Positions 9,673-29,790 of a stretch of 64,000 nt of DNA are shown one piece after another. Numbering within the stretch: the first letter of the stretch is position 1; each line of letters starts with the position of its first letter. A program made the translations under genes and the position numbers. This DNA comes from Escherichia coli (GTDB lineage: Bacteria > Pseudomonadota > Gammaproteobacteria > Enterobacterales > Enterobacteriaceae), in assembly GCF_022846255.1 (NCBI RefSeq), contig NZ_AP025682.1. One strand, written 5' to 3'. The notes beneath the pieces are model-generated. The model made no database searches. It saw only the letters and a list, made by a program, of their open reading frames with translations, and had not been told where the DNA came from.

Positions 9673-9677
9673 TTTGC

Positions 9678-10594: not shown

Positions 10595-10649
10595 GGGGCA
10601 TTCGCCCCTTTTTTTCTTTCCTTTAAAAATCAAAGCAAAACTTAAACTT

Positions 10650-10715: not shown

Positions 10716-10756
10716 GTCATCAGCAGGACGCTGGTAGCCAAACGGAACAGATTGGC

Positions 10757-10797
10757 AGGCTCTTTAACATTGATGGGATTGTCCCGCCGAAATGCGG
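10757..10797 (+). promoter_or_regulatory. nutL (boxA + boxB)
   Basis: GCTCTTTAACA then hairpin CCCGCCGAAATGCGGG, identical to the nutR elements. Confidence 0.6.
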
Positions 10798-10906
10798 GAA
10801 CCAAAGAGTAGTTGGCTTTGGGGTGACGTGAAGTGCAGCTGCACGACGGCAACCGGAAGATAAGCACCCGGCGCGTCACCGCCAAAGTCAATCATCGGAG
10901 GTCAAC

Positions 10907-11179
10907 ATGGCAGTAGTCATTACATATCTGGCTGACGATAACGCCAGAAATCGCCGCAGAGCACGCAGACAGGCTCAACGTGAGCAGGCAATGCAAGAAC
11001 AGCGACTGGCGCGAAAAATTGCGCTAAAGCTCTCTGGTTGCGTCAGAGCAGACAAAGCAGCATCACTCGGAAGCCTTCGCTGCAAGAAGGCAGATGAATG
11101 CAGTGGAAGTATTTGCCTGCCAAACGTAGCCATTTACGCGGCAGGCTACCGGAAATCAAAACAACTGACGGCGAGATGA
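10907..11179 (+). CDS. N: N-family antiterminator with arginine-rich motif
   Basis: 90 aa, ...DDNARNRRRARRQAQREQ... just downstream of nutL; segments resemble phage 21 N and P22 gp24 as recalled. Confidence 0.65.
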   Translation: MAVVITYLADDNARNRRRARRQAQREQAMQEQRLARKIALKLSGCVRADKAASLGSLRCKKADECSGSICLPNVAIYAAGYRKSKQLTAR

Positions 11180-11777: not shown

Positions 11778-11990
11778 CGGCGTTTCTCTTTTGCTCTCTG
11801 TAGGGGTGAATAGAGTTTATCCGATTTCTCGCTGTAGGGGTACATGAGAACCACCGAGCCTGATGTGGTTAAAAGACAGGCACAATCTTTACTACCGCAA
11901 TCCACTATTTAAGGTGATATATGGAAGAAGAATTTGAAGAGTTCGAAGAGCATCCTCAGGATGTGATGGAACAATACCAGGACTATCCGT

Positions 11991-12170
11991 ATGACTACGA
12001 CTATTGATACAAATCAATGGTGTGGACAATTCAAACGATGCAATGGATGCAAGCTGCAATCGGAATGCATGGTTAAGCCTGAAGAAATGTTTCCTGTAAT
12101 GGAAGATGGGAAATATGTCGATAAATGGGCAATACGAACGACGGCAATGATTGCCAGAGAACTTGGTTAA
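11991..12170 (+). CDS. ral: Ral (restriction alleviation)
   Basis: Manual translation MTTTIDTNQWCGQFKRCNGCKLQSECMVKPEEMFPVMEDGKYVDKWAIRTTAMIARELG. Confidence 0.7.
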   Translation: MTTTIDTNQWCGQFKRCNGCKLQSECMVKPEEMFPVMEDGKYVDKWAIRTTAMIARELG

Positions 12171-12373
12171 CAGAACAACAAAGCTGCCTGATAGTGGCCT
12201 TTATTTTTGGCATAAATAACAGAATAAACACTGCACCGTGTATTCATTCCAACGAGTGAATACACGGAGCAATGTCGCTCGTAACTAAACAGGAGCCGAT
12301 TTGTTCTGATTATTGGAAATCTTCTTTGCCCTCCAGTGTGAGGGCGATTTTTTATCTATGAGGATATGAATAG

Positions 12374-12742
12374 GTGTCAAACATCAAAAAATACATCATT
12401 GATTACGACTGGAAAGCATCAATTGAAATTGAAATCGACCATGACGTAATGACAGAGGAAAAACTTCACCAGATTAATAATTTCTGGTCAGACTCTGAAT
12501 ACCGACTCAATAAACACGGCTCTGTATTAAATGCTGTATTAATCATGCTGGCGCAACATGCTCTGCTTATAGCAATTTCAAGCGACTTAAATGCATATGG
12601 TGTTGTGTGTGAGTTCGACTGGAATGATGGAAATGGTCAGGAAGGATGGCCTCCAATGGATGGTAGCGAAGGAATAAGAATTACCGATATCGATACATCA
12701 GGAATATTTGATTCAGATGATATGACTATCAAGGCCGCCTGA
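12374..12742 (+). CDS. ea10: Ea10 (ssDNA-binding protein)
   Basis: 122 aa, MSNIKKYIIDYDWKASIEIEIDHDVMTEEKLHQ... Confidence 0.85.
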   Translation: MSNIKKYIIDYDWKASIEIEIDHDVMTEEKLHQINNFWSDSEYRLNKHGSVLNAVLIMLAQHALLIAISSDLNAYGVVCEFDWNDGNGQEGWPPMDGSEGIRITDIDTSGIFDSDDMTIKAA

Positions 12743-12814
12743 GTGCGGCTTTACCGCATACCAATAACGCTTCACTCGAGGCGTTTTTCGTTATGTATAA
12801 ATAAGGAGCACACC

Positions 12815-12979
12815 ATGCAATATGCCATTGCAGGGTGGCCTGTTGCTGGCTGCCCTTCCGAATCTTTACTTGAACGAATCACCCGTAAATTACGTGACGG
12901 ATGGAAACGCCTTATCGACATACTTAATCAGCCAGGAGTCCCCAAAAATGGATCAAACACTTATGGCTATCCAGACTAA
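12815..12979 (+). CDS. cIII: CIII (FtsH inhibitor)
   Basis: Internal Met of ORF 12743..12979: MQYAIAGWPVAGCPSESLLERITRKLRDGWKRLIDILNQPGVP... Confidence 0.85.
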   Translation: MQYAIAGWPVAGCPSESLLERITRKLRDGWKRLIDILNQPGVPKNGSNTYGYPD

Positions 12980-13091
12980 ATTCACTATCGCCACTTTTAT
13001 TGGCGATGAAAAGATGTTTCGTGAGGCCGTCGACGCTTATAAAAAATGGATATTAATACTGAAACTGAGATCAAGCAAAAGCATTCACTAA
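12948..13091 (+). CDS. kil: Kil
   Basis: [47 protein letters not shown] at the end of ORF 12822..13091. Confidence 0.8.
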
Positions 13092-13462
13092 CCCCCTTTC
13101 CTGTTTTCCTAATCAGCCCGGCATTTCGCGGGCGATATTTTCACAGCTATTTCAGGAGTTCAGCCATGAACGCTTATTACATTCAGGATCGTCTTGAGGC
13201 TCAGAGCTGGACGCGTCACTACCAGCAGATCGCCCGTGAAGAGAAAGAGGCAGAACTGGCAGACGACATGGAAAAAGGCCTGCCCCAGCACCTGTTTGAA
13301 TCGCTATGCATCGATCATTTGCAACGCCACGGGGCCAGCAAAAAAGCCATTACCCGTGCGTTCGATGACGATGTTGAGTTTCAGGAGCGCATGGCAGAAC
13401 ACATCCGGTACATGGTTGAAACTATTGCCCGCCACCAGGTTGATATTGATTCAGAGGTATAA
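13046..13462 (+). CDS. gam: Gam (RecBCD inhibitor)
   Basis: 138 aa, [35 protein letters not shown]... Confidence 0.95.
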
Positions 13463-13467
13463 AACGG

Positions 13468-14253
13468 ATGAGTACAGCACTCGCAACGCTGGCAGGGAAG
13501 CTGGCTGAACGTGTCGGCATGGATTCTGTCGACCCACAGGAACTGATCACCACTCTTCGCCAGACAGCATTTAAAGGCGATGCCAGCGATGCGCAGTTCA
13601 TCGCATTGCTGATCGTCGCCAACCAGTACGGCCTTAATCCGTGGACGAAAGAAATTTACGCCTTCCCTGATAAGCAGAACGGCATCGTTCCGGTGGTGGG
13701 CGTTGATGGCTGGTCCCGTATCATCAATGAAAACCAGCAGTTTGATGGCATGGACTTTGAGCAGGACAATGAATCCTGCACATGCCGGATTTACCGCAAG
13801 GACCGTAATCATCCGATCTGCGTTACCGAGTGGATGGATGAATGCCGCCGCGAACCATTCAAAACCCGCGAAGGCAGAGAAATCACGGGGCCGTGGCAGT
13901 CGCATCCCAAACGGATGTTACGTCATAAAGCCATGATTCAGTGTGCCCGTCTGGCCTTCGGATTTGCTGGTATCTATGACAAGGATGAAGCCGAGCGCAT
14001 TGTCGAAAATACCGCATACACTGTAGAACGTCAGCCGGAACGCGACATCACTCCGGTTAACGATGAAACCATGCAGGAGATTAACACTCTGCTGATCGCC
14101 CTGGATAAAACATGGGATGACGACTTATTGCCGCTCTGTTCCCAGATATTTCGCCGCGACATTCGCGCATCGTCAGAACTGACACAGGCCGAAGCAGTGA
14201 AAGCTCTTGGATTCCTGAAACAGAAAGCCACTGAGCAGAAGGTGGCAGCATGA
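13468..14253 (+). CDS. bet: Bet (Red-beta recombinase)
   Basis: 261 aa, [32 protein letters not shown]... Confidence 0.95.
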
Positions 14254-14930
14254 CACCGGACATTATCCTGCAGCGTACCGGGATCGACGTGAGAGCTGTC
14301 GAACAGGGGGATGATGCGTGGCACAAATTACGGCTCGGCGTCATCACCGCTTCAGAAGTTCACAATGTGATAGCAAAACCCCGCACCGGAAAAAAGTGGC
14401 CTGACATGAAAATGTCCTACTTTCACACCCTGCTGGCTGAGATTTGCACCGGTGTGGCTCCGGAAGTTAACGCTAAGGCGCTGGCCTGGGGAAAACAGTA
14501 CGAGAACGACGCCAGAGCCCTGTTTGAGTTTACTTCCGGCGTGAATGTTACTGAATCCCCGATCATCTATCGCGACGAAAGTATGCGCACCGCCTGCTCT
14601 CCCGATGGTTTATGCAGTGACGGCAATGGCCTTGAGCTGAAATGCCCGTTTACCTCCCGGGATTTCATGAAGTTCCGGCTCGGTGGTTTCGAGGCCATAA
14701 AATCGGCTTACATGGCCCAGGTGCAGTACAGCATGTGGGTGACGCGAAAAGATGCCTGGTACTTTGCCAACTATGACCCGCGTATGAAGCGTGAAGGCCT
14801 GCATTATGTCGTGATTGAGCAGAATGAAAAGTACATGGCGAATTTTGACGAGATGGTGCCGGAGTTCATCGAAAAAATGGACGTGGCACTGGCTGAAATT
14901 GGTTTTGTATTTGGGGAGCAATGGCGATGA
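14250..14930 (+). CDS. exo: Exo (Red-alpha exonuclease)
   Basis: 226 aa, [43 protein letters not shown]... Confidence 0.95.
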
Positions 14931-15109
14931 AGCATCCTCACGATAATATCCGGGTAGGCGCGATCACTTTCGTCTACTCCGTTACAAAGCGAGGCTGGGT
15001 ATTTCCCGGCCTTTCTGTTATCCGAAATCCCCTGAAAGCACAGCGGCTGGCTGAGGAGATAAATAATAAACGGGGAGCTGTATGCACAAAGCATCTCCCG
15101 TTGAGTTAA
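14921..15109 (+). CDS. Lambda orf60a-like small protein
   Basis: [37 protein letters not shown]... Confidence 0.6.
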
Positions 15110-15273
15110 GAACGAGTATCGAGATGGCACATAGCCTCGCTCAAATTGGAGTCAGGTTTGTGCCAATACCAGTAGAAACAGACGAAGAATTTCATACGTT
15201 AGCCGCATCCCTTTCACAAAAGCTGGAAATGATGGTGGCGAAAGCAGAAGCAGATGAGAGAGACCAGGTATGA
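15082..15273 (+). CDS. Lambda orf63-like small protein
   Basis: [38 protein letters not shown]... Confidence 0.6.
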   Translation: MHKASPVELRTSIEMAHSLAQIGVRFVPIPVETDEEFHTLAASLSQKLEMMVAKAEADERDQV

Positions 15274-15349
15274 CAACCACTGAATGCATTTTTCTGGCAG
15301 CGGGCTTCATATTCTGTGTGCTTATGCTTGCCGACATGGGGCTTGTTCA

Positions 15350-15565
15350 GTGACACCTCAGCAAGAAAACGCCCTTCGCAGCATTGCCCGTCAGGCTAAT
15401 TCTGAAATCAAAAAAGCCAGACAGCAGTTTCCGGATAAAAACGTCGATGACATTTGCCGTAGCGTACTGAAGAAGCACCGCGAAACGGTAACGCTGATGG
15501 GATTCACACCGACTCATTTAAGCCTTGCGATCGGCATGTTGAACGGCGTCTTTAAGGAACGGTGA
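15350..15565 (+). CDS. Lambda orf61-like small protein
   Basis: GTG start inside ORF 15284..15565: VTPQQENALRSIARQANSEIKKARQQFPDKNVDDICRSVLKKH... Confidence 0.5.
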   Translation: MTPQQENALRSIARQANSEIKKARQQFPDKNVDDICRSVLKKHRETVTLMGFTPTHLSLAIGMLNGVFKER

Positions 15566-15663
15566 ACATGAAAAGCAAAATCATCAGGGAGCTACAGGCT
15601 CCTTTTTTATTATTCGCATTTACCCTCAAGCGTATTAACCAACAATTCAGGGATTAATGAAAG

Positions 15664-15885
15664 ATGGCGGACATCATTGATTCAGTATCAGAAATTGAAG
15701 AATTACAGCGCAATACAGCAATAAAAATGCGTCGTCTGAACCACCAGACTATATCTGCCACTCATTGTTGTGAGTGTGGCGATCCGATAGATGAACTAAG
15801 ACGTCTGGCCGTTCAGGGTTGTCGGACTTGTGCAAGTTGCCAGGAAGATCTGGAGCTTATCAGTAAACAGAGAGGTTCGAAGTGA
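15664..15885 (+). CDS. TraR/DksA-family C4 zinc-finger protein
   Basis: 73 aa with CCECGDPIDELRR...CRTCASC four-Cys motif. Confidence 0.6.
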   Translation: MADIIDSVSEIEELQRNTAIKMRRLNHQTISATHCCECGDPIDELRRLAVQGCRTCASCQEDLELISKQRGSK

Positions 15886-16091
15886 GCGAAATTAACTCTC
15901 AGGCACTGCGTGAAGCGGCGGAACGTGCAATTCCAGCAATGGAACGCCTGTTAATGTTGCCAGCTGATGATGATTTGTTAAGTGAACAGGAACTTAAAGA
16001 TTACGGTGTGGATATTGATGCGCTCAACGCCTTCAAATTTCTGGCCGGACCAGAAACCGTGCTGGCACTGCGCCGTCAGGAAGTTTTTTAG
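15882..16091 (+). CDS. Hypothetical acidic protein, last gene of the pL operon
   Basis: 69 aa, GTG start overlapping the TraR-like stop, so likely translationally coupled. Confidence 0.5.
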   Translation: MSEINSQALREAAERAIPAMERLLMLPADDDLLSEQELKDYGVDIDALNAFKFLAGPETVLALRRQEVF

Positions 16092-16120
16092 TACGATCAA
16101 TGGTTAACTCAACTCTCATG
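16034..16120 (-). CDS. Candidate 28-aa ORF downstream of the LexA-box promoter
   Basis: Strong SD GAGGAGGG 5 nt before ATG; MRVELTIDRTKKLPDGAVPARFLVRPEI; antisense to the 3' end of gene 15882..16091. Confidence 0.25.
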
Positions 16121-16138
16121 ATTCCCTCCTCATTGATT

Positions 16139-16189
16139 TACTGTGTGAATATACAGTTACTTTATAAACCTCTCATTTGGATTTTGCAA
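16139..16189 (-). promoter_or_regulatory. Putative LexA-repressed promoter
   Basis: Minus strand TTGCAA, 17-bp spacer, TATAAA, then TACTGTGTGAATATACAGTT on + (CTGT-N8-ACAG) covering the predicted start site. Confidence 0.5.
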
Positions 16190-16223
16190 TGTTTTAAGGG
16201 CACGAATTGCGAATAACCCTATA

Positions 16224-16256
16224 CAAAAAAACCCGCCGAAGCGGGTCTTATCTTTC
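16224..16256. terminator. Bidirectional intrinsic terminator
   Basis: AAAAAAA-CCCGC-CGAA-GCGGG-TCTTATCTTTC; strong U-tract for minus-strand transcripts, weaker for the plus-strand pL operon. Confidence 0.6.
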
Positions 16257-16257
16257 A

Positions 16258-16431
16258 TTAATGCTTAGTCCTTACAGGAAAAGACCAGCATTTATATCCG
16301 TATGCGTGTGCATCCAAAACTCGGCGCTCTGAGTCAGGCGTCCCAGCTTTAGCTCGCGCCCTGCGATAACGACATTTTACCCAGCGGAAACCATCCGGAA
16401 GTTTTTTGGTAGGAATTTCTTTCAAAGCCAT
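16258..16431 (-). CDS. Candidate 58-aa basic ORF
   Basis: ATG with GAGG 7 nt upstream; MALKEIPTKKLPDGFRWVKCRYRRARAKAG...; below the ORF-track size cutoff. Confidence 0.2.
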   Translation of the reverse strand: MALKEIPTKKLPDGFRWVKCRYRRARAKAGTPDSERRVLDAHAYGYKCWSFPVRTKH

Positions 16432-16580
16432 AAATAAACCTCGTTCCAGGCGAGCACTTCCCTGAAACTTGATAAAAATATGGGGATCCGCTAATGTACT
16501 GTTGTTGACGCAGTACTGATTGCGGGTGCTCTAACATCCCCAATCCGAGCCCTTCCCCGGCAAAGGAAGGGCTCAAATTC

Positions 16581-17111
16581 TTATGAAGGCTTCACATACG
16601 CCTTCAAAATCGACATAATACGCTCAGCTTCTTCCATCGTGATGTTGGTAGGCAACCCCTGAACTGTAATCATTGCCCCTGTTTCAGGTCGAACAACGAT
16701 CGGTAAATTGAAAGTCTGCACTTTCTCATGTCTTGCAGCTTTAGCTTTCTCCATCTTCTGCTCCACCGCATCAAACCCATCTAAATTTCCTTCGGTGTCT
16801 GCCAAGTTGACTAAAGTCCCCACTCGCGTGTACTCCTCAAACTTATTGACAGCACTTTTAAACCGGCTTCGATAATTATGAATGGTGGATTCACTGGGCT
16901 TGTTTGCCTGAGTTTCAGCATAACGAGTAATGAGGTCTTCAACGTTCAGGTCGCGCACATCATCGTTGTCACTCGTGTCGACCACAGATAACAGCAGCAA
17001 CGCAGAATTTTTTAAGTTGCGAGCTGTTGCTTCGTTGATCAGCCCCAAGTTAGGCAACTTCATAAGAAAATCGAAGAATGCTTGCGTTGAGTAATTATCG
17101 TTCATAAGCAT
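16581..17111 (-). CDS. Hypothetical protein, 176 aa, no recognisable family
   Basis: ORF track; ATG start; hairpin GAGCCCTTCC...GGAAGGGCTC just after the stop. Confidence 0.6.
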   Translation of the reverse strand: MLMNDNYSTQAFFDFLMKLPNLGLINEATARNLKNSALLLLSVVDTSDNDDVRDLNVEDLITRYAETQANKPSESTIHNYRSRFKSAVNKFEEYTRVGTLVNLADTEGNLDGFDAVEQKMEKAKAARHEKVQTFNLPIVVRPETGAMITVQGLPTNITMEEAERIMSILKAYVKPS

Positions 17112-17156
17112 CTCTCATTGTTATCCATAGGTGTAGTGTAGATTCAGAGGTTTTAC

Positions 17157-17196
17157 CGATCAATGTTTTTTTTATCGATCGATCAATCTTTTTTTA
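17157..17196 (-). promoter_or_regulatory. GATC-clustered direct repeats in the leader of the 176-aa gene
   Basis: Three GATC within 27 bp; two copies of CGATCAAT each followed by a T-run, 45-85 bp upstream of the start codon. Confidence 0.35.
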
Positions 17197-17337
17197 AATC
17201 TAACCAATCCCACCCACTTAAAAACACTCAACAACATTTCACCCCCTCAGAAACAAAATAAAATAAACTATATAAAACAACAAAATACACAGATCTATAA
17301 AACAGACAACCGCCCCCGCCTCCCCCACCCCATACTG
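17186..17337 (-). repeat. Strand-asymmetric tract: G-depleted on +, G-rich on -
   Basis: About 6 G in ~150 nt on +; minus strand has GGGGTGGGGGAGGCGGGGGCGG (17310-17331) and further G-runs. Confidence 0.45.
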
Positions 17338-17407
17338 AATTTAGATACAGCCTTAGTTAATCAACCTTCGTTCACCAGAGCAGCACATATGCCTTCGGAC
17401 TTTTTAG

Positions 17408-17995
17408 TTAAGCCACAAATGGCAGTTTGCACAGTTCTGGTAGATTTGCCCTTACCAGAGCCTCCGCGAATTGTGGAGGTACGGCATTTCCGCATCTGGC
17501 GACCTGTTTATCCTTCGCATACTTCACGCCACGATAATCTTGGTCGATGATGTACCAGTCCGGGAAGCCCTGCGCCCGGTACAGTTCACGCGGCTGTAAC
17601 ATGCGCATACCAATATCAACAATGCGATACGTCACGCCATCGATCACCACCAGCCCGGTACAATCCTCGCCACAGTATTTACGCAGGAACGACAGCGTTT
17701 GTTGCGCGCGTTCTTCGTCGTACTCATCTACGGCAAGATGGGTTTCAACGTTCCCTACATGCAGGCCACCAGCCGTGACAGTCGGCATTGGCGCGTCGGT
17801 GCGTTGTCCATCCCGGCAGGTTCCGCGCAATTTAACCAGGTGAGAAGCAACCACAGCATGGTGATCGACGGTGGTCACAGAATGCATCGGCTCATCCATC
17901 CCCACTTCGGCAATAAACCGGTAAAGGTGTTCGCGATAAAGGTGAATATCAATGACTAAATCAGCAGCAGAAAGCAAAAGAATTTTTAGGTACAA
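17408..17995 (-). pseudogene. Remnant of a DNA cytosine-C5 methyltransferase (C-terminal part only)
   Basis: Motif IX-like RMLQPRELYRAQGFPDWY and motif X-like ARCGNAVPP present; no FxGxGG or PCQ motifs; ORF opens only with TTG. Confidence 0.6.
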
Positions 17996-18065
17996 TCAAA
18001 ATCACTTTTTGTTGTTAACTATTTGATGAACTACAAGGATAAGATCATGTATCAGCAAATCATTT

Positions 18066-18356
18066 TTGAAGAAGGAAAAGAACCAAGAGTGCACACAAGC
18101 CACCAAGACATCAAGACATCAAGACATCAAGACATCAAGACATCAAGACATCAAGTCTATCGAAATAAGTGATAACAGTGGAAAAGTTCAAGAGATTTCG
18201 GTTATGGAGTTCAAGGATACCAGAGGAGATGTTTTTTATGCTTACAACTATGCTTATTCTGGTAAAAAACCATCAAATGACGAAATCTATAAGGCTATTG
18301 ATGAGCTAAAGCCAATCGGTGAAAAATTCGAAATGTCTAAGACTATAAGCGATTAG
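18066..18356 (+). CDS. Hypothetical small protein containing an octanucleotide tandem repeat
   Basis: ORF track (TTG start, no SD); upstream ATG at 18047 with AAGGA SD is out of frame by one repeat unit. Confidence 0.4.
   Translation: MKKEKNQECTQATKTSRHQDIKTSRHQDIKSIEISDNSGKVQEISVMEFKDTRGDVFYAYNYAYSGKKPSNDEIYKAIDELKPIGEKFEMSKTISD
18102..18157 (+). repeat. Octanucleotide tandem repeat ATCAAGAC
   Basis: Five perfect units at 18110-18149 flanked by ACCAAGAC and ATCAAGTC; unit length is not a multiple of 3. Confidence 0.9.
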
Positions 18357-18518
18357 ATAAATCTGTTTTCAACATTGCAGCAAAATCATAGGAAGAACGC
18401 GACAAAGTTAACATGCTATCGCGAACAGTCGTTAACATCACCTAAAGTCAGCGAATCGCGATACATGGAAATGTCTGGGAAGAACGCCAAGAAGTAAGCG
18501 CAATTTGAACAAATGCGA

Positions 18519-18545
18519 ACCCGCCGAGTGCGGGTTTTCTTTTAT
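18519..18545 (+). terminator. Intrinsic terminator
   Basis: ACCCGC-CGAGT-GCGGGT followed by TTTCTTTTAT. Confidence 0.6.
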
Positions 18546-18586
18546 CTGAACTCGCTACGGCGGGTTTTGTTTTATGGAGACAAGAA

Positions 18587-18931
18587 ATGTCAGATTTGGC
18601 TATGAAGGTTTTGAAATGGCAATCGACTGGCGATGTTGGCATCAGTAGCGCAACTCTTGCCTCAATCGCATGTGGACTGAAAAAGAATATCTATGGTCAT
18701 AGCTTCGGTGCTCCACATGACGCAGCCGATTTCCGACGATGCGTTGCGCTTGTCGAGCAGATTCCAGAAATCAGGGATTCATTCGACAAGGTTGCAAAGC
18801 GCGTTCCGGCATTCAAAGGCATCCTCAACGAATGGGATTCTCTCGTTGCTCTGTTGAAGTCTGAAATGAAGATACACGGAAACAAAGCACCAGAGACTTA
18901 CAGAAGAATTAGCGAGTTACGCAAGGACTAA
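18587..18931 (+). CDS. Hypothetical protein, 114 aa, no recognisable family
   Basis: ORF track; ATG with GGAGA SD; MSDLAMKVLKWQSTGDVGISSATLASIACGLKK... Confidence 0.55.
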   Translation: MSDLAMKVLKWQSTGDVGISSATLASIACGLKKNIYGHSFGAPHDAADFRRCVALVEQIPEIRDSFDKVAKRVPAFKGILNEWDSLVALLKSEMKIHGNKAPETYRRISELRKD

Positions 18932-18989
18932 CCACAGCCTCACACTCGATGAGGCCCGTTCATTTCTCAAGATATCCAGACCTACCATT

Positions 18990-19012
18990 GCCGCATCAAT
19001 GCGGCTTTTCTT
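18990..19012 (+). terminator. Putative terminator before xis
   Basis: GCCGCA-TCAA-TGCGGC followed by TTTTCTT. Confidence 0.45.
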
Positions 19013-19036
19013 GCGTGTAATTGCGGAGACTTTGCG

Positions 19037-19255
19037 ATGTACTTGACACTTCAGGAGTGGAACGCACGCCAGCGACGCCCAAGAAGCCTTGAAACAGTTC
19101 GTCGATGGGTGCGCGAATGCAGGATATTCCCTCCTCCGGTTAAGGATGGAAGAGAGTATCTGTTCCACGAATCAGCGGTAAAGGTTGACTTAAATCGACC
19201 AGTAACAGGTAGCCTTTTGAAGAGGATCAGAAATGGGAAGAAGGCGAAGTCATGA
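19037..19255 (+). CDS. xis: Excisionase Xis
   Basis: 72 aa, MYLTLQEWNARQRRPRSLETVRRWVRECRIFPPPVKDGREYLFHESAVKVDL... near-identical to lambda Xis as recalled. Confidence 0.9.
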   Translation: MYLTLQEWNARQRRPRSLETVRRWVRECRIFPPPVKDGREYLFHESAVKVDLNRPVTGSLLKRIRNGKKAKS

Positions 19256-20306
19256 GCGCCGGGATTTACCCCCTAACCTTTATATAAGAAACAATGGATA
19301 TTACTGCTACAGGGACCCAAGGACGGGTAAAGAGTTCGGATTAGGCAGAGACAGGAGGATAGCAATTACTGAAGCAATACAGGCCAATATTGAGTTACTC
19401 TCAGACAGCGGACGCAAATCACTAATAGACAGAATTAAAGGCGGTGACGCAATCACTCTTCATGTGTGGCTTGACCGATATGAAACAATCCTCACCGAAA
19501 GGGGGATCAGGCCGAAAACTCTACTCGACTACGCCAGCAAAATCAGGGCAATCCGAAGAAAATTGCCGGACAAACCGCTCACTGACATATCAACGAAAGA
19601 AGTGGCAGCAATGCTAAACACCTACGTAGCAGAAGGTAAAGCAGCTTCCGCAAAATTAATCAGGTCAACCCTTGTTGACGTTTTTCGTGAAGCAATAGCC
19701 GAGGGGCATGTGGCAACGAATCCGGTAACAGCAACCCGTACAGCAAAGTCAGAAGTAAGGCGCTCAAGGCTGACAGCTAATGAGTATGTCGAGATTTACC
19801 ATGCAGCCGAACCTCTCCCTATCTGGCTAAGGCTGGCGATGGATTTGGCCGTCGTTACAGGGCAGAGAGTCGGCGATTTGTGCAGAATGAAATGGTCAGA
19901 CATAAACGACAACCATCTTCACATTGAACAGAGTAAAACAGGGGCTAAACTCGCCATTCCGCTAACGCTAACGATTGACGCGCTCAATATCTCATTGGCT
20001 GATACACTACAGAAATGCAGGGAGGCCAGCAGCAGTGAAACTATAATCGCATCAAAGCATCACGATCCGCTTTCCCCGAAAACAGTATCAAAGTATTTTA
20101 CAAAGGCGAGAAATGCATCTGGACTCTCATTTGATGGAAACCCGCCAACATTCCATGAACTGCGTAGCCTGTCAGCGAGGCTATACCGGAACCAGATTGG
20201 CGATAAGTTTGCTCAACGTCTTCTCGGGCATAAATCAGACTCAATGGCGGCGCGGTATAGGGACAGCCGTGGACGGGAATGGGACAAAATTGAAATCGAC
20301 AAATGA
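19233..20306 (+). CDS. int: Tyrosine integrase, lambda family, HK022-like
   Basis: 357 aa; N-terminal arm-binding domain identical to lambda Int, central and catalytic domains diverged; RSLSARLY and HKSD motifs. Confidence 0.95.
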   Translation: MGRRRSHERRDLPPNLYIRNNGYYCYRDPRTGKEFGLGRDRRIAITEAIQANIELLSDSGRKSLIDRIKGGDAITLHVWLDRYETILTERGIRPKTLLDYASKIRAIRRKLPDKPLTDISTKEVAAMLNTYVAEGKAASAKLIRSTLVDVFREAIAEGHVATNPVTATRTAKSEVRRSRLTANEYVEIYHAAEPLPIWLRLAMDLAVVTGQRVGDLCRMKWSDINDNHLHIEQSKTGAKLAIPLTLTIDALNISLADTLQKCREASSSETIIASKHHDPLSPKTVSKYFTKARNASGLSFDGNPPTFHELRSLSARLYRNQIGDKFAQRLLGHKSDSMAARYRDSRGREWDKIEIDK

Positions 20307-20400
20307 TTTTATTTTGACTAATAATGACCTGCCTACATTAATTCATTGATAATAAAAGAGATTTTAAATATACAACTTATTCACCTAAAGTGCACCGACC
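20307..20400. other. Approximate prophage-chromosome junction (attL)
   Basis: AT-rich 94 bp between int stop and torS start; core not located at nucleotide resolution. Confidence 0.35.
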
Positions 20401-23133
20401 GTGAATTTAACCCTGACCCGAAGACTCTGGATGGGCTTTGCCCTGATGGCGCTGTTAACCCTGACCAGTACCCTGGTGGGATGGTACAACCTGCGCTTTA
20501 TCAGCCTGGTGGAAAAAGACAACACTCAGGCATTGATTCCTACCATGAATATGGCGCGCCAGTTGAGCGAAGCCAGCGCCTGGGAACTTTTCGCCGCGCA
20601 GAACCTGACCAGTGCCGATAACGAAAAGATGTGGCAGGCGCAGGGGCGAATGCTCACCGCACAAAGCCTGAAGATTAATGCGTTGCTGCAAGCGTTACGG
20701 GAACAAGGTTTTGACACCACCGCTATTGAACAACAGGAGCAGGAGATCTCCCGTTCGTTACGTCAGCAAGGGGAACTGGTGGGACAGCGTTTGCAACTGC
20801 GCCAGCAACAACAGCAACTCAGTCAGCAGATAGTCGCCGCCGCCGATGAGATCGCACGCCTGGCGCAAGGTCAGGCGAATAATGCGGCAACCTCCGCCGG
20901 AGCGACCCAGGCCGGGATTTACGATTTGATCGAACAACATCAGCGTCAGGCCGCAGAAAGTGCACTCGATCGGCTGATTGATATCGATCTTGAGTATGTT
21001 AACCAGATGAATGAACTGCGCCTTAGCGCCCTACGGGTGCAGCAAATGGTGATGAATCTGGGGCTGGAACAGATCCAGAAAAATGCGCCAACGCTGGAAA
21101 AGCAGCTCAATAATGCGGTGAAAATTCTGCAACGTCGGCAAATACGCATTGAAGATCCGGGTGTTCGTACTCAGGTAGCAACAACGTTAACTACCGTTAG
21201 CCAATATAGCGATTTGCTGGCGCTGTATCAGCAGGACAGTGAAATCAGCAATCACCTGCAAACTCTCGCCCAAAATAACATCGCCCAATTCGCGCAGTTT
21301 AGTAGCGAAGTCAGTCAGCTGGTCGACACCATTGAGCTGCGTAATCAGCACGGACTGGCGCATCTGGAAAAAGCCAGTGCACGCGGGCAATACAGCCTGT
21401 TATTGCTGGGGATGGTTTCACTTTGCGCACTGATACTGATCCTCTGGCGCGTGGTTTATCGCTCAGTCACGCGTCCACTTGCCGAACAAACGCAGGCACT
21501 GCAACGACTGCTGGACGGTGATATTGACTCCCCTTTCCCGGAAACCGCTGGCGTACGGGAACTGGACACCATCGGGCGGCTGATGGATGCGTTTCGCAGC
21601 AGTGTTCATGCACTGAATCGCCACCGTGAACAGTTGGCGGCGCAGGTCAAAGCGCGTACAGCTGAATTGCAGGAACTGGTGATAGAACACCGACAGGCAC
21701 GGGCGGAAGCAGAAAAAGCCAACCAGGCAAAATCAGCGTTTCTGGCGGCGATGAGCCATGAGATCCGCACACCGCTGTACGGTATTCTCGGTACCGCACA
21801 GCTACTGGCAGATAACCCCGCACTTAACGCTCAGCGTGATGATTTGCGGGCAATTACCGACTCTGGCGAATCGTTGCTGACCATCCTCAACGATATTCTC
21901 GATTATTCGGCTATCGAAGCAGGCGGCAAGAATGTTTCGGTCAGCGATGAACCCTTTGAACCGCGCCCGTTGCTGGAAAGTACCCTGCAATTAATGAGCG
22001 GACGGGTGAAAGGTCGCCCGATTCGCCTGGCAACGGCAATTGCCGACGATGTACCGACTGCGTTAATGGGCGATCCGCGGCGTATTCGTCAGGTCATTAC
22101 CAACCTGTTGAGCAACGCCCTGCGTTTCACCGACGAAGGGCACATTATCCTGCGTAGTCGCACTGATGGCGAACAATGGCTGGTCGAAGTGGAAGACAGC
22201 GGTTGCGGTATTGATCCCGCGAAACTGGCAGAAATCTTCCAGCCATTTGTTCAGGTAAGCAGCAAACGCGGCGGAACCGGGCTGGGGCTGACTATCAGTA
22301 GCCGTCTGGCCCAGGCGATGGGCGGCGAACTGAGCGCCACCAGCACGCCGGAGGTTGGAAGCTGTTTTTGTTTACGCTTGCCGTTACGTATTGCCACTGC
22401 ACCCGTGCCAAAAACAGTCAATCAGGCGGTACGTCTGGACGATTTGCGTTTGCTGTTAATTGAAGATAACCCGCTCACCCAGCGAATTACTGTCGAAATG
22501 CTGAACACCAGTGGTGCGCAGGTCGTTGCAGTAGGAAATGCCGCGCAGGCTTTAGAGACACTGCAAAATAGTGAACCATTTGCTGTCGCACTGGTGGATT
22601 TTGATCTGCCGGATATCGACGGCATTACGCTTGCCCGGCAACTGGCACAGCAATATCCGTCGCTGGTTTTGATTGGCTTTAGCGCTCATGTCATCGACGA
22701 AACACTGCGCCAGCGTACCAGTTCGCTATTTCGCGGGATTATCCCTAAACCGGTGCCGCGTGAAGTGCTCGCTCAATTACTGGCGCACTATCTCCAACTG
22801 CAAGTCAAAAATGATCAACCGCTGGATGTATCGCAACTCAATGAAGATGCTCATTTAATGGGGGCGGAGAAGATCCACGAATGGCTGATATTATTTAAAC
22901 AACATGCCCTGCCGCTTCTCGATGAAATCGACATTGCCCGCGCCAGTCAGGATAACGAGAAAATAAAGCGTGCCGCACATCAGCTAAAAAGCAGTTGCTC
23001 GAGTCTGGGAATGCGTAGCGCCAGCCAGCAATGCGCACAACTGGAGCAGCAGCCATTATCTGCCCCCCTTCCACACGAAGAAATTACACGCAGTGTTGCC
23101 GCTCTGGAAGCATGGTTAATAAGAAAGACCTGA
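20401..23133 (+). CDS. torS: TorS hybrid sensor kinase
   Basis: 910 aa, [33 protein letters not shown]..., HisKA/HATPase/receiver/HPt; GTG start. Confidence 0.95.
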
Positions 23134-23215
23134 ACGCGATTTGAATCAATATCAGCCAGTTAAGAACAACTAGAATAGTGGCATTTGGTATGCAACTTAA
23201 CGGACTGGCAAAATC

Positions 23216-24289
23216 ATGGCAGAGAAAAAAAGAACCCGCTGGCAGCGGCGGCCAGGCACGACGGGCGGCAAATTACCGTGGAATGACTGGCGCAATGCCA
23301 CGACCTGGCGTAAAGCGACGCAATTATTACTGTTGGCAATTAATATTTATATTGCCATCACGTTCTGGTATTGGGTGCGCTATTACGAAACGGCAGGTAG
23401 TACGACATTTGTCGCCAGACCGGGAGGTATCGAAGGCTGGCTACCGATTGCCGGTCTGATGAATCTGAAATATAGCCTTGCAACAGGTCAGTTACCGTCC
23501 GTCCACGCCGCCGCGATGCTGTTATTGGTCGCTTTTATCGTCATCAGTCTATTACTCAAAAAGGCCTTTTGTTCATGGTTATGCCCGGTTGGTACGCTTT
23601 CGGAATTAATCGGCGATCTCGGTAACAAACTGTTTGGTCGGCAATTTGTCCTTCCCCGCTGGCTGGATATTCCTCTGCGCGGCGTGAAGTATTTGCTGTT
23701 GAGTTTTTTTCTCTATATCGCGTTATTGATGCCCGCTCAGGCGATTCACTATTTTATGTTGTCGCCCTACAGCGTGGTGATGGACGTTAAAATGCTCGAT
23801 TTCTTTCGTCATATGGGGACCGCGACATTAATCAGCATGATCGTTTTGCTGATTGCCAGCCTGATTATTCGCCATGCCTGGTGTCGTTATCTTTGCCCAT
23901 ATGGCGCGCTGATGAGCGTGGTTTCGCTATTATCGCCGTTTAAGATTCGTCGCAATGCCGAAAGTTGTATCGATTGTGGCAAATGCGCAAAAAGTTGCCC
24001 ATCACGGATCCCGGTCGATAAATTAATTCAGGTACGAACAGTGGAATGTACCGGCTGTATGACTTGCGTAGAGTCATGTCCGGTAGCCTCAACATTGACC
24101 TTTTCACTGCAAAAACCTGCGGCAAATAAAAAAGCCTTTGCGTTGTCTGGCTGGTTAATGACGCTACTGGTTATGGGGATTATGTTTGCGGCGATTGGTT
24201 ACGCAATGTATGCGGGAGTATGGCAAAGCCCGGTGCCGGAGGAATTGTACCAACGCTTAATTCCGCAATCGCCAATGATTGGTCACTAA
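23216..24289 (+). CDS. yccM: YccM, 4Fe-4S membrane protein
   Basis: 357 aa, polytopic, CxxCxxCxxxCP ferredoxin motifs. Confidence 0.9.
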   Translation: MAEKKRTRWQRRPGTTGGKLPWNDWRNATTWRKATQLLLLAINIYIAITFWYWVRYYETAGSTTFVARPGGIEGWLPIAGLMNLKYSLATGQLPSVHAAAMLLLVAFIVISLLLKKAFCSWLCPVGTLSELIGDLGNKLFGRQFVLPRWLDIPLRGVKYLLLSFFLYIALLMPAQAIHYFMLSPYSVVMDVKMLDFFRHMGTATLISMIVLLIASLIIRHAWCRYLCPYGALMSVVSLLSPFKIRRNAESCIDCGKCAKSCPSRIPVDKLIQVRTVECTGCMTCVESCPVASTLTFSLQKPAANKKAFALSGWLMTLLVMGIMFAAIGYAMYAGVWQSPVPEELYQRLIPQSPMIGH

Positions 24290-24337
24290 ATTAGCAACAA
24301 GCGGAACATCACCTCGCACGGGGTGATGTTCACAAAA

Positions 24338-24511
24338 TCACATTATTTTGATTTTGACATCATAACTTTCAAGCCCGGTCATTTTTTCTCGTGCGGTGAA
24401 GCGAATTTCAGAGACTTCTTTCCCTGTATTCTTGTTCAGCTCGGCGATTTTTTGCGCGATAAAGTCGGCGATTTCCGTTTCGGCTTGTTTTTTTAACTCT
24501 TCAATATTCAC
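24338..24511 (-). CDS. gnsA: GnsA
   Basis: Manual translation from GTG: MNIEELKKQAETEIADFIAQKIAELNKNTGKEVSEIRFTAREKMTGLESYDVKIKIM. Confidence 0.75.
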   Translation of the reverse strand: MNIEELKKQAETEIADFIAQKIAELNKNTGKEVSEIRFTAREKMTGLESYDVKIKIM

Positions 24512-24731
24512 TGTTAACCTCTTCTGGTCTTAAAAGACAGCAACACGCCAGTAAGGTGTTGGTTCCCGGTACCCTGGTCAGGTAAGAAATGTTATAAGCC
24601 ATCTCCCCGAAAGATTCAATAATCAACAGGTTATCGCTTACTATACATACAGCGTTGAAGAAAAATAAGGCAGATATAAAAAAGGCTCCACGAGGGAGCC
24701 TGATATTATTTTGTGAAATCCAGCGGCGCAT
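24501..24731 (-). CDS. ymcE: YmcE
   Basis: Internal Met of ORF 24501..24764: MRRWISQNNIRLPRGAFFISALFFFNAVCIV... Confidence 0.65.
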   Translation of the reverse strand: MRRWISQNNIRLPRGAFFISALFFFNAVCIVSDNLLIIESFGEMAYNISYLTRVPGTNTLLACCCLLRPEEVNSEY

Positions 24732-24904
24732 GGTCAGTGCGTATTTGCAGCGCAACGTTATCAAAGGTGATCATCGTCGATTTACAAAAAATGCACTTTG
24801 CACCCAAAGGATTTCGCTCCGTCACATCGAATGCCGATGTGCGGTACTGTGAACCATGGCAACATGGACAGCGGAAATGGAGATGTTGAGTAATAACGGC
24901 AACC

Positions 24905-25117
24905 TTAGAGTGTAACAACGTTCGCTGCCGCGGGACCACGTTGCCCCTGCTCAATAGAAAATTCAACTTTCTGATTTTCGTTCAGCGTGCGGAATTCATT
25001 GCTCTGGATGGCAGTGAAATGGACGAAAACGTCTTTGCTGCCATCATCAGGAGTGATAAAGCCAAAACCTTTATCTGCGTTAAACCATTTTACTAAACCA
25101 GTCATTTTATTAGACAT
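24905..25117 (-). CDS. cspG: Cold-shock protein CspG
   Basis: 70 aa, [34 protein letters not shown]... Confidence 0.9.
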
Positions 25118-25402
25118 ATTTTACTTCCTTCATTTTGGGCCTTTCGGCAAACAGGGCTTTAATACAGAAACTACTTAGTGTTCAGGAGAGAGACTCAAAA
25201 GAAGGGGATAATGCCTGATAATGAGAACTGCTTTAGTAAACTACTTTGTATGCTGTCTGTCTTTCAAACCGACGCAGCTATTAACGCATGATAATTGAGA
25301 TTAAGCAAATTTTATTTTAGCCGTCCGGCGGTCTTAAATATCGCTGGCTTTATTTTATTAACCCCGTATAGTGCAGCGCAGTATTTTCAGTAAGGAATTT
25401 GT

Positions 25403-25615
25403 TTGTCCCGTAAAATGACAGGAATTGTCAAAACCTTTGATCGCAAAAGCGGCAAAGGATTCATTATCCCCTCCGACGGTCGTAAAGAAGTCCAGGTCCA
25501 TATTTCCGCATTCACTCCCCGCGACGCAGAAGTGCTTATACCAGGATTACGCGTGGAATTTTGCCGCGTAAATGGCCTGCGTGGACCAACAGCGGCAAAT
25601 GTTTATTTGTCTTGA
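25403..25615 (+). CDS. cspH: CspH-like cold-shock-domain protein
   Basis: 70 aa, [33 protein letters not shown]... Confidence 0.8.
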
Positions 25616-26913
25616 TGGAGAGCGCACGCTGGTATGCGTGCTTCATTCACGATTTGCGTAAAACCGGCCAACGAACACATGCCCTGCGCATTTCGCTCTT
25701 CACATCCTGCCAGGGTCAGTTTCACCTCTCCGGGCGGCGTATTTAATGATAGCGGCGTTTTATCACGCATCTGCTGTAAAGTCTGGAAGACCAGCGAAAC
25801 CTGAATCCACTGGCTGTTATCGCTGAGCCGACGCCAGCGTTCAAACACCAGTTCACCACCTGGCGGCGTGTTATCCGGCTGACCTGGAAGTGTCCAGTTG
25901 AGCTCCAGTGCGCCGCCGAGATTTGCCAGATTAGTATCGTGTCCGGCAATAAACAGCACTGAAGTGGGTAATGTCACACCATACGCCTGTTTTTGCGATG
26001 GATGGGGCGTCAACGCTGCCATGATCAAATCCAATAACGGGGTGGCGCGACTGCGGGCAACCTCTGGCGTGCGTTGTAGTAAATAAAATTGCGCGTTATG
26101 TAGACTTAGCAAGGTGTTCCACTGGTGTGAATCGGTGATCCTTCCCCACCCCGGCTCCGGCATTCCCTGTGCTTGTTGCAGGAGAAATATCTCCGTCAGC
26201 ATTGATGCGAGGCTTACCGCACCGGTTAATGAGACATTGTCGGCGCTCACCTTGAGTTCCGATGGTAATGCCTGCGTTAATGAACAGCTTTCGTCCTGTT
26301 TCTTACGGTTAAGGCACAAGTTTGATTGCGGGAAATTAAGCACCCGTTCCAGTTCGCGAAACGCCGTTTGCCGATGCCCGGCAAAGTCAGCAATTGCCCC
26401 TCCTGCCCTACTGAGGATCGCGTCAGTCACGTTCGCGTTATCCAGTTGGCAAACGCCAGTTTTTAGAGGATTAAATAACGGATCGGGACTGGACGTATCT
26501 GCCTGGGTATGTACGGTTATTGCACAGTCAGGTTCCAGCCCGGCGGCGAAGGCTTCGCCTGTTTTACGGGTACGTTCGTCGACATCAGCAATAACCGCGA
26601 CCTGACCTGGCTGCGGGCAGCCCTTTTTTGCCAGCAATCCGTCGGCCACCAGACGCTGGCGTTGGTAATGTCCGAGATAAGCGATTAACTCACCACCGCG
26701 CGGTGTCAGCCAACCCAGTTTTACCGGCCAGGTTGGCCATGCGTCAGGGGTGACATCCTGCATCAGTTGCGTGGCCTTGGTTGGTGCACGCACACCGTGA
26801 CGACTGACAATCACCACACTTTCCAGCTTCAGCTCCGGCTCACTCTGAGCGAATGCAGATTTCGGTGTTAACGGAATCAGAAGAGATAAGAATGGGATCA
26901 AGATCGCTTTCAT
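25603..26913 (-). CDS. appA: AppA periplasmic acid phosphatase/phytase
   Basis: [46 protein letters not shown]..., RHGxRxP motif. Confidence 0.95.
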
Positions 26914-26992
26914 CGATATGTTTCCGCTTTTCATATCCGACATTATTGATTGCCTGATGCGACGCTAATGCGCCTCATCAGGCTTACCTTCG

Positions 26993-27085
26993 TTAACTTT
27001 TCAATCGCGGGTCCAGCCATACCAACACAAGGGTGGAGAGCGAACACATCAACAAAATGCCGACGAACCAAAGTAAATACCACAT
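26993..27085 (-). CDS. appX: AppX (cytochrome bd-II small subunit)
   Basis: Manual translation MWYLLWFVGILLMCSLSTLVLVWLDPRLKS, 30 aa, between appB and appA. Confidence 0.7.
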   Translation of the reverse strand: MWYLLWFVGILLMCSLSTLVLVWLDPRLKS

Positions 27086-27097
27086 TGTTCCTGCTCC

Positions 27098-28234
27098 TTA
27101 GTACAGCTCGTTTTCGTTACGGCGGAGAGTTTCTGTCGTCATGCGCCCCCACATTTTGTAGTAGCTCCAGAGAGTGTAGAGCAACACAATGGGCAAAAAT
27201 ATCAGCACGATTACCAACATAATGCTCAGCGTCAGCTGACTGGAAGTGCTGTCCCACAACGTCAGGCTGGAGATCGGACTCACGCTTGACGGCATGACAA
27301 AGGGGAACAGCGTGATGCCTGCCGTGAAAATCACGCCAAATTGCATCAATGACGCCATCAAAAATCCCCAACCCGGGCGACCACGATAAATCGCCATCAC
27401 CGTCAGCAATGGGCAGAAGAACCCCAGCAGCGGGAAGATCCACAAAACGGGCGATTCGACGAAATTATTCATCCAGACACCAGGTAGCACTGCCACCAGT
27501 TTCATTAACGGATTGGAAGGACCGTTAGCATCCTGGGCGAGCAGTACAAAGCCATCAATACCAACCCACAGCCAGTAACCCGCCAGCAAAAAGCACAGCA
27601 TCACCAGTAGTGCGGCGCGTTTGGTCGCCAGCTGTGAACGCAGATGAATCACACCAACAGTTTTCAGTTGTAACCAGACGCCACCTTGCAAAATCACCAT
27701 CCCAAGACTGAGCAATCCACACAATAAAGGGAATGGCGTCAGCAGTTGCCAGAAGCTGCCGAGATATTCCACGCGTAATTGCGGTGTGAAAGCAAACGGC
27801 ACGCCGAGCAGCAAGTTGCCGAATGCAATACCGAAGACTACCGGCGGCACCAGACTGCCGATGACCAGTCCGGCATCCCACATTTTACGCCAGCGTGCAT
27901 CGGCGATTTTTCCGCGATAATCAAAGGCCAGCGGGCGGAAGAACAGCGAGCACAGCACCAGAATCATCGCCACATAAAAGCCGGAAAACGCCGCTGCATA
28001 CACTCTGGGCCAGGCGGCAAATAATGCCCCACCTGCGAGGATCAACCAGACCTGATTACCTTCCCAGTGCGCGCCAACGCTGTTTATCACTATCCGACGT
28101 TCATCATCATTACGCGCCACCAGCGGCAGCAGACAGCCGATCCCCATGTCAAATCCGTCGGAGATCATAAAGACCACCAGGATCACGCCAATAAGCAGCC
28201 ACCAGATGAAGCGCAATGTTTCATAATCAAACAT
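27098..28234 (-). CDS. appB: Cytochrome bd-II oxidase subunit II
   Basis: 378 aa polytopic membrane protein. Confidence 0.95.
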
Positions 28235-28245
28235 GATTTTCTCCT

Positions 28246-29790
28246 TTACCCCTGTTGCTGCGTCGGTTGTTCACTCTGCATCGCGCTCGGACCCAGACGG
28301 GCATATTTCTGCATCAGGTAGACTTCGGCGATTAAGAACAGGGTGTAAAGCCCTACGATCATGATCAGTGAGAAAGCCAGTTGTCCTGTGGTTAAGGCGG
28401 AGTGCGCGGAGTATGTCGGTAAGATGTCTTGTATCGCCCACGGCTGACGACCAAACTCGGTCATAAACCATCCGGCTTCAATCGCAATCCACGGCAGCGG
28501 CAAACTCCAGAGCGCCATTTTCAGCACCCAGCGATGCTGGTCGATTTTGCCACGCAGCGTCTGGACAAGCGCAATCAGCATCACCAGTAGCAGCAGGGAA
28601 CCACAGCCCACCATGATGCGGAAACTCCAGAATACCGGCGCAACCTGAGGTATCGCGCCACGCATCGCCGCCTGGTACTGTGCGGCTGTGACATGATTCA
28701 TATCCGGCGCATAGCGGGAGAGCAACATGCCGTAACCCAGGTCACCTTCCAGCTCCCGGAATGCCTGCAACACATGCGGCTCACGATTGCCTTGCGATAT
28801 TTCCTGCATTAACAGCCACGCCATACGTCCGCGTTGCAAGCGTGGGTAGGTTTCAGCCATCAAATTCTTCAGACCCGGCACGGGTTTATCTAATGAATGA
28901 GTGGCGAGGATCCCTAGCAGCGCGGGAATTTTGATGGCAAAGGCGTTACGCTCTTGATCCTGTTCCGGCCAGGCAACCACATGGAACGGTGCAGGTGCAG
29001 GTTCCGTTTGCCACTCCCCTTCCATCGCCGCCAGTTTTACCGGTTGTACTTGCGCGACTTCATACGCAGAACTGTCTCCGAGTTGCAGCGTACCGATAAT
29101 CGCCAGAGTACCGAAGACGGAACCGATGGCAAACGAGCGTAATGCGACATCGCGCTCCCGTCCGCGCAGTAAATACCAGGCGCTGATCGCCATAATAAAC
29201 ATAGCCCCGGTCACGTATCCCGCCATTACGGTGTGCACAAATTTCACCTGGCTGACCGGGTTAAAGACCAACTCGCTGAAACTGGTCATCTCCATACGCA
29301 GGGTGTCGATATCAAAATGCGCACCGGTCGGGTATTGCATCCAACCGTTGGCATTCAATATCCACAACGCAGAGAGATTTGAACCGAACGCCACCAGCCA
29401 CGTCACCAGCAGGTGCTGGTATTTATTCAGCCGCTGCCAGCCGAAGAAGAACAGCCCGACAAAGGTGGATTCGAGGAAGAAGGCCATTAATGCTTCCATC
29501 GCCAGCGGTGCGCCAAAAATATCGCCCACATAGTTGGAATAGAATGACCAGTTAGTACCAAACTGAAACTCCATGGTCAGGCCGGTAGCCACGCCAAGAG
29601 CAAAGTTGATACCGAAGAGCTTACCCCAGAAGCGCGTCATATCGCGGTAGATTGTTTTGCCGGTGACCACGTAAATGGTTTCCATGATAGCCAGCAAAAA
29701 AATCAGCCCCAGGGTAAGGGGTACAAATAAAAAGTGATACAGCGCGGTCAGAGCAAACTGCCAGCGCGATAAATCAATGACATCCCACAT
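28246..29790 (-). CDS. appC: Cytochrome bd-II oxidase subunit I
   Basis: [29 protein letters not shown]... Confidence 0.95.

Follow-up and report, generated by a model that had tools for sequence, protein, structure and literature searches.

The region described here lies beside torS in a window of 64,000 nucleotides, by which we mean the whole stretch of Escherichia coli DNA that was analysed (from contig NZ_AP025682.1). Very probably, a lambdoid prophage ends here in attL, having entered by Int-mediated, site-specific integration at the HK022 attB site in the spacer between the divergent genes torS and torT. The right-hand boundary of the prophage is 20379/20380. [quoted passage not shown] A preliminary description of this DNA had placed the prophage at the torS-torT site, and the junction, which is a B-O-P' arrangement at the HK022 core next to torS, agrees with that placement. 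The description had also named the spacer as the HK022 attB. This matches the published account of the site and its prevalence (Carey et al. 2019, eLife 8:e49081, PMC6814406), and the K-12 torT-torS spacer includes AACCTTTTTCACCTAAAGTGC.

The Attachment-Site Junction

Blastn similarity to HK022 ran up to 20390, and similarity to K-12 ran from 20376 onward. Their only overlap was the core that phage and host have in common (minus strand CTTTAGGTGAA), and this core was present in one copy in the 64 kb window. Alignment with HK022 attP and E. coli attB located the core at 20373–20393, and alignment with the lambda core (CAGCTTT-TTTATAC-TAAGTTG) gave the B half-site, the 7-bp overlap, and the C'/P' site:

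20373–20393, minus strand: attL core, 21-bp composite B-O-P' (GCACTTT-AGGTGAA-TAAGTTG), from the alignments and the 21-mer count
20393–20387, minus strand: attL B half-site GCACTTT, from the alignment
20386–20380, minus strand: attL 7-bp overlap AGGTGAA, from the lambda-core alignment and the HK022 literature
20379–20373, minus strand: attL C'/P' site TAAGTTG, from the alignment

The exact limits of the overlap, which we take to be those of AGGTGAA, come from the lambda-core alignment together with the HK022 literature. In a three-way alignment, the window was identical to HK022 attP as far as TTCACCTAAAG and identical to K-12 from TTCACCTAAAG on. This block, common to phage and host, occupies 20380–20390. 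In window orientation, and with the junction marked by a slash, the three sequences read:

HK022 attP: ...ATATACAACTTATTCACCTAAAG/GATGACAAAATAAC...
K-12 torT-torS spacer: ...GCGACTCAACCTTTTTCACCTAAAG/TGCACCGACCGTG(torS)
Window junction: ...ATATACAACTTATTCACCTAAAG/TGCACCGACCGTG, with phage on the left and host on the right

By these alignments, the window junction is an exact HK022 B-O-P' recombinant, or attL in lambda nomenclature as used by Carey et al. The attL 21-mer occurred once in the 64 kb window, where the attB, attP, and attR 21-mers had zero occurrences and the P arm had no match. The unoccupied attB, GCACTTTAGGTGAAAAAGGTT, was found in K-12 within the 82-bp torT-torS spacer, and HK022 attB has been described as having a 21-bp B-O-B' organisation (PMC7736782).

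One base of the site varied among lysogens. At 20387, the last base of the B half-site beside the overlap, the window and HK022 carry CTTTAGGTGAA; many B1/STEC strains have the variant CTTAAGGTGAA instead, as does Stx1a_11KH263. The Stx1a_11KH263 record annotates a 15-bp duplication, CTTAAGGTGAATAAG (2871–2885 of the locus).

The Host Flank and Related Genomes

The host sequence to the right of the junction begins with the sensor kinase gene:

20401–23133, plus strand: torS, TMAO sensor kinase, 910 aa, with an annotated GTG start at 20401 and a confirmed ATG at 20431

The true start of torS is the in-frame ATG 30 nt downstream of the GTG, which was established experimentally (Carey et al. 2019, PMC6814406). 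Between the end of the int stop codon (20306) and the annotated torS start there are exactly 94 bp, as the preliminary description had it; the distance to the confirmed ATG is 124 bp. The attL core itself lies 7 bp ahead of the annotated GTG and 37 bp ahead of the confirmed ATG. TorS was intact and 97% identical to K-12 TorS. It has 910 aa versus 914 in K-12, aligning without gaps to residue 909, after which the extreme C-terminus differs (window 23119–23133). Nucleotide alignment with K-12 showed a single 1-bp indel in the torS-yccM-cspH block.

Using K-12 torS-torT-torR and its flanks as the blastn query over the whole window, we obtained matches to torS, yccM, cspG, cspH, and appA. No match to torT was found in the 64 kb window, in keeping with the earlier remark that torT is missing on the torS side. 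The host flanking genes were 99.0% identical to those of B2-type strains. The flank also differed from K-12 in that appA directly adjoins cspH (window 25616–25624), a segment of ~9 kb in K-12 being gone that holds etk, etp, gfcEDCBA (the group 4 capsule operon), and IS1. The best-matching genomes for this flank (99.0%, including O16:H6 and AR_0017) aligned in one piece and thus have the same cspH-appA arrangement. AR_0017 is given as B2 in the strain list of Carey et al. 2019 (PMC6814406).

To find relatives, a 24-kb part of the window was compared with 5,426 complete E. coli genomes. The exact mosaic of the window was absent from the complete RefSeq E. coli genomes, and the closest relative, VCSW7, matched with 85% coverage and 97.5% identity. 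In VCSW7, a related prophage spans torS to torT, and torT lies at the other prophage end. The torT-side junction of VCSW7, ...GCGACTCAACCTTTTTCACCTAAAG/GATGACAAAATCAC..., is the reciprocal B'-O-P, in which AACCTTTTTCACCTAAAG is followed by the HK022 P arm and then by a sib/tI-like terminator hairpin. The torS-side junction was present in 194 of the 5,426 genomes (about 3.6–4%) and the torT-side junction in 197. Occupancy of the site in E. coli was reported in 2019 as "roughly 5%" (Carey et al., PMC6814406).

The VCSW7 prophage has a further feature of its own. An insert of 11 kb (NZ_CP082357.1, about 2847223–2858436; locus 19224–30437) interrupts its lambda-type major capsid gene and has its own genes for an integrase, a primase, SSB, an Icd-like protein, a major capsid protein, a head-decoration protein, and Abi. 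From this gene content, the insert looks like a capsid-encoding phage satellite within the prophage capsid gene.

Judging from these relatives, the reciprocal P-O-B' junction of the window genome would stand beside torT, at a distance of some tens of kilobases from the left window edge. The position of torT is read across from the relatives and need not be one prophage length away, because the torT-torS distance was 95 kb to 2.2 Mb in 13 of 45 published strains as a result of later rearrangements (PMC6814406). Those 13 strains, and the fact that the window ends within the prophage with the left end outside, leave some room for a history in which integration at attB was followed by a chromosomal rearrangement, for example an inversion between prophages, that put torT elsewhere and made precise excision impossible. 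We consider this unlikely for the window genome, as VCSW7 and most of the published strains have the simple torT-prophage-torS order and the counts of the two junctions are almost equal (194 versus 197 genomes).

Mosaic Composition of the Prophage

The prophage part of the window was mapped by blastn of window 1–20400 against HK022, lambda, and phage 21. Two features frame the description:

1–20379, unstranded: int-proximal part of a lambdoid mosaic prophage, extending past the left window edge (from blastn, Pfam, tRNAs, and the VCSW7 PGAP annotation)
18570–20390, plus strand: HK022-homologous integration module (114-aa ORF, xis, int, P' arm, and core), 95.5% identical to HK022 22460–20640

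The window starts inside terminase gene A, and the terminase end is the one piece of the head module in the window. The order of the prophage begins with partial terminase A, Nu1, cos, phage-21-type lysis genes, two tRNAs, and Q. It continues with the nin region, P, O, an imm21-related immunity region, lambda-type exo/bet/gam, an accessory region, xis, int, and the P' arm. To the left of the integration module, the map reads as follows:

1–2165: lambda A, Nu1, and cos, 97.7%
3438–5262: phage 21 Q, tRNA-Thr, tRNA-Asn, pinholin, SAR endolysin, and spanin, 94%
5247–9281: lambda/21 nin, ren, P, and O, 97–98%
9648–11098: phage 21 cro, cI, and N, 86%
11798–15931: lambda sieB through exo and orf61, 97.5%
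15931–18570: accessory region, unlike lambda and HK022

Similarity to HK022 covered 3,219 of 20,400 bp, made up of 18570–20390 and three short patches, and similarity to lambda covered 12,009 bp of window 1–20400 at about 97%. The preliminary description had called the head and immunity modules unlike those of HK022 and the phage a mosaic with HK022-type site specificity, and each part of that statement was upheld. Nu1 and A are 97.7% lambda (the terminase end alone being in the window), the immunity region is, by its sequence, a diverged imm21 relative at 86%, and similarity to HK022 accounts for 3.2 kb out of a prophage part of 20.4 kb. The cI protein of the window has HTH and S24 peptidase domains (Pfam). 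The tRNA-Thr(TGT) and tRNA-Asn(GTT) genes are at window 4514–4669 on the minus strand, with Q on one side and the holin gene on the other, an arrangement shared with phage 21.

Two other identities for the element were tried and rejected. The prophage is not phage HK022 (Shamshuipovirus HK022), given the 3,219 of 20,400 bp of similarity and its lambda-type terminase, replication, and recombination genes. Nor is it an Stx phage, since the interval from Q (4761–5249) to the endolysin gene (3683–4180) holds the holin gene and two tRNAs. No stx genes were found between Q and the lysis genes, the Q-to-holin interval (4180–4761) being too short for them.

A rival reading takes the element as a defective remnant, with only the int end kept beside torS. 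Such remnants are known at this site. MMC-J-0105, the sole 100% junction match, has an IS3-family element where int should be (18663–20105 of the locus), and what else is left is short and P22-like (tailspike, antirepressor, Arc). This remnant keeps the identical P' arm-torS junction, so the phage arm nearest torS can outlast the decay of the prophage. Within the window, an ORF at 17408–17995 on the minus strand matched the C-5 cytosine DNA methylase family over positions 239–320 of 324 (PF00145, E = 1.5e-7) and looks like a 5'-truncated methylase remnant inside the 15931–18570 accessory region. The methylase fragment is a point in favour of decay. The visible 20 kb, however, consist of full-length lambdoid genes in the canonical order (Nu1, lysis, Q, nin, P, O, cI, N, gam, bet, exo, xis, int) and have 0 IS elements, and we regard it as improbable that the window element is such a remnant.

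The Integrase and Excisionase

The two recombination genes overlap and point toward torS:

19037–19255, plus strand: xis, 72-aa excisionase (Pfam PF07825, E = 3.9e-41)
19233–20306, plus strand: int, 357-aa HK022-type heterobivalent tyrosine integrase, full-length, overlapping xis and directed outward toward torS

Xis was 100% identical to HK022 Xis and one residue different from lambda Xis. Int was 97% identical to HK022 Int, 99% to that of Stx1 phage H19J, and 75% to lambda Int. These values are from tblastn against 50,697 phage records, in which the matches grouped as follows:

Three Stx1a-phage records (H19J, Stx1a_EH2115, and Stx1a_11KH263): 99.2–99.7%
Four other LC7441xx Stx1a phages: 96.1%
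HK022 and mEp235: 96.9%
Lambda, 434, HK97, and relatives: about 75%

Pfam recognised the arm-binding domain (PF09003, E = 1.2e-28) and the catalytic domain (PF00589, E = 1.5e-41) in Int. In a four-way alignment, residues 1–55, which belong to the arm-binding domain, were the same in all four proteins, lambda included. The differences from lambda Int were spread over the core-binding and catalytic domains, and the catalytic residues R212, K235, H308, R311, H333, and Y342 were invariant. This is what the preliminary description had expected of an HK022-type enzyme, namely a lambda-identical N-terminus and a diverged core, and HK022 Int was much the closer of the two in alignment (97% versus 75%). 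As far as can be read from their sequences, Int and Xis are intact and HK022-type, and Int is a lambda-family heterobivalent tyrosine integrase.

Int has D99, P282, K283, K287, and R319, as does HK022 Int, and lambda Int has N, S, G, R, and E at these places. We take positions 99, 282, 283, 287, and 319 to be the five lambda/HK022 specificity determinants. Dorgai, Yagil, and Weisberg are said to have established in 1995 which five Int positions matter. On this alignment, Int is closer to HK022 Int than to lambda Int, and the presumed specificity positions are in the HK022 state. A review states that the specificity difference between lambda and HK022 Int is set by five residues (PMC6007267). 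A search by name for N99D, S282P, G283K, R287K, and E319R in the literature at hand found none of them.

We give practically no credence to an Int that is functionally of lambda-type or other specificity, with the position at torS a secondary-site or illegitimate insertion: its 55 N-terminal residues and the C' site TAAGTTG are the same as in lambda, but Int as a whole is 97% HK022 versus 75% lambda, the five positions that we take to set specificity all have the HK022 residue, phage and host sequence meet precisely within the HK022 overlap next to an HK022-type B site (GCACTTT), and the same junction recurs in 194 genomes. A lambda-specificity Int, like a chance juxtaposition, is effectively refuted by the Int alignment, the junction alignment, and the 21-mer counts.

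The P' Arm

The interval between int and the core carries the arm of the phage attachment site:

20307–20379, plus strand: P' arm, 73 bp, with 68 of 73 positions matching HK022
20301–20330, minus strand: predicted arm-type Int sites P'1–P'3 in tandem, from alignment with the lambda P' arm
20330–20321, minus strand: P'1, AGGTCATTAT, predicted by alignment
20320–20311, minus strand: P'2, TAGTCAAAAT, predicted by alignment
20310–20301, minus strand: P'3, AAAATCATTT, predicted by alignment and overlapping the int stop codon
20339–20351, minus strand: putative IHF H'-like site, TATCAATGAATTA, read from the sequence and aligned to lambda H'

The arm is complete, has five mismatches to HK022, and is the same as the arm of strain 266917_2 in the alignment of Carey et al. 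(PMC6814406). Its length of 73 bp is exactly the distance from the int stop codon to the junction published for HK022 lysogens (Carey et al. 2019, PMC6814406). The predicted P'1–P'3 sites are identical to those in HK022 attP and align to the stretch annotated as Int-binding site 4 in the lambda record. The IHF consensus is WATCAANNNNTTR, and the putative H' site fits it.

No terminator-like site was found between int and torS (20306–20401). A consensus promoter scan of the P' arm gave weak matches only, with 9–10 of 12 positions. A weak promoter consensus in the HK022 arm was likewise remarked on by Carey et al. 2019 (PMC6814406).

Proposed Integration Mechanism and Effect on torS

Site-specific integration at the HK022 attB would account for the junction as follows. 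The prophage carries an HK022-type integration module consisting of xis, int, and attP. The lambda-identical N-terminal domain of Int would bind the arm-type sites, and its core-binding and catalytic domains, which have diverged, would bind the core sites of HK022 type. Integration at attB would be carried out by Int with IHF, and strand exchange in the 7-bp overlap AGGTGAA would yield B-O-P' beside torS. Excision would need Int, Xis, and IHF, given an intact junction at the other end. The rest of the phage is a lambda/phage-21-type mosaic and non-HK022, and site specificity therefore travels as an exchangeable module of ~1.8 kb.

The consequences of such an insertion for torS have been worked out by Carey et al., who demonstrated the regulatory effect both with HK022 in K-12 and in NRG 857C, a natural lysogen (PMC6814406). 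HK022 integration cuts torS off from the IscR site and from its two native start sites, and in HK022 lysogens torS transcription starts inside the prophage, from a promoter within about 200 bp of torS, in the P' arm (PMC6814406). This phage promoter gives higher, oxygen-independent torS transcription. The surplus of TorS relative to TorT dephosphorylates TorR; as a result, torCAD is not expressed under aerobic conditions and bet-hedging disappears (PMC6814406).

The layout for prophage-driven torS expression is present in the window, with the prophage directly upstream, int directed outward, a P' arm of 73 bp, and a terminator-free path to torS. [quoted passage not shown] The same effect on torS and torCAD is likely in the window strain because the window shares the geometry, keeps 68 of 73 positions in the arm, and has a terminator-free int-torS gap.

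The five substitutions in the P' arm, two of which restore a lambda-like ATCAA in H', could conceivably alter how strong the phage-borne torS promoter is or how it is regulated, although we hold this to be a long shot. If true, the torCAD oxygen response of this B2-lineage lysogen would be unlike that of both an HK022 lysogen and a non-lysogen.

The site, the integrase type, the mosaic prophages found at the site, and the effect on torS have all been published, and the window is one more instance of what is already known. Its value is a correct annotation of the prophage end and the attachment site, with the right-hand prophage boundary fixed. An HK022-type integration module inside a lambda/21-like phage illustrates, in textbook fashion, how site specificity is exchanged as a module. 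For the host, the native promoter region under IscR control is lost to torS in the window strain. From the published work on the HK022 lysogen and NRG 857C, TMAO respiration would then probably be expressed only anaerobically.

Comparison with Known Systems

The closest described system is the int-xis-attP segment of HK022 (X51962; NC_002166 20640–22460), which has the same Xis, core, and overlap, an Int 97% identical, and a P' arm matching at 68 of 73 positions. HK022 also uses the same chromosomal target, the torS-torT spacer, with the same orientation of int toward torS. The two phages differ elsewhere. HK022 has HK97-type terminase and head genes, P22-like replication genes (gp18/gp12), and Erf/Abc2 recombination genes, whereas the window has lambda Nu1/A, lambda O/P, and lambda exo/bet/gam, respectively. 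The immunity and Q-lysis regions of the window are related to phage 21, unlike those of HK022 (Nun/HK022 immunity).

[quoted passage not shown] The P' arm of 266917_2 is identical to that of the window, and beyond the arm one base differs, the last of B beside the overlap. HK022-type integrases have been reported at this site in diverse lambdoid prophages, some of them scored as lambda-like (PMC6814406).

Stx1 phages also use the torS-torT site (PMC10042803). Those compared here (H19J, from O26:H- strain H19, and the O26:H11 Stx1a phages LC744179-84) have the same junction, and their records annotate a duplicated core. Their Int proteins are 99.2–99.7% identical to the window Int in three cases and 96.1% identical in the other four. 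In contrast to these phages, the window is without stx genes, and its early and late regions are lambda/21-like.

Lambda, which integrates between gal and bio, has the same heterobivalent mechanism, the same P'1–P'3 and H' layout, and the same C' site (TAAGTTG), and its Int is identical over residues 1–55 and its Xis nearly so. The lambda overlap, however, is TTTATAC versus AGGTGAA in the window, and the lambda B/C core site is CAGCTTT versus GCACTTT. The core-binding and catalytic domains of the two integrases have diverged (75% identity overall), and the two prophages occupy different chromosomal sites.
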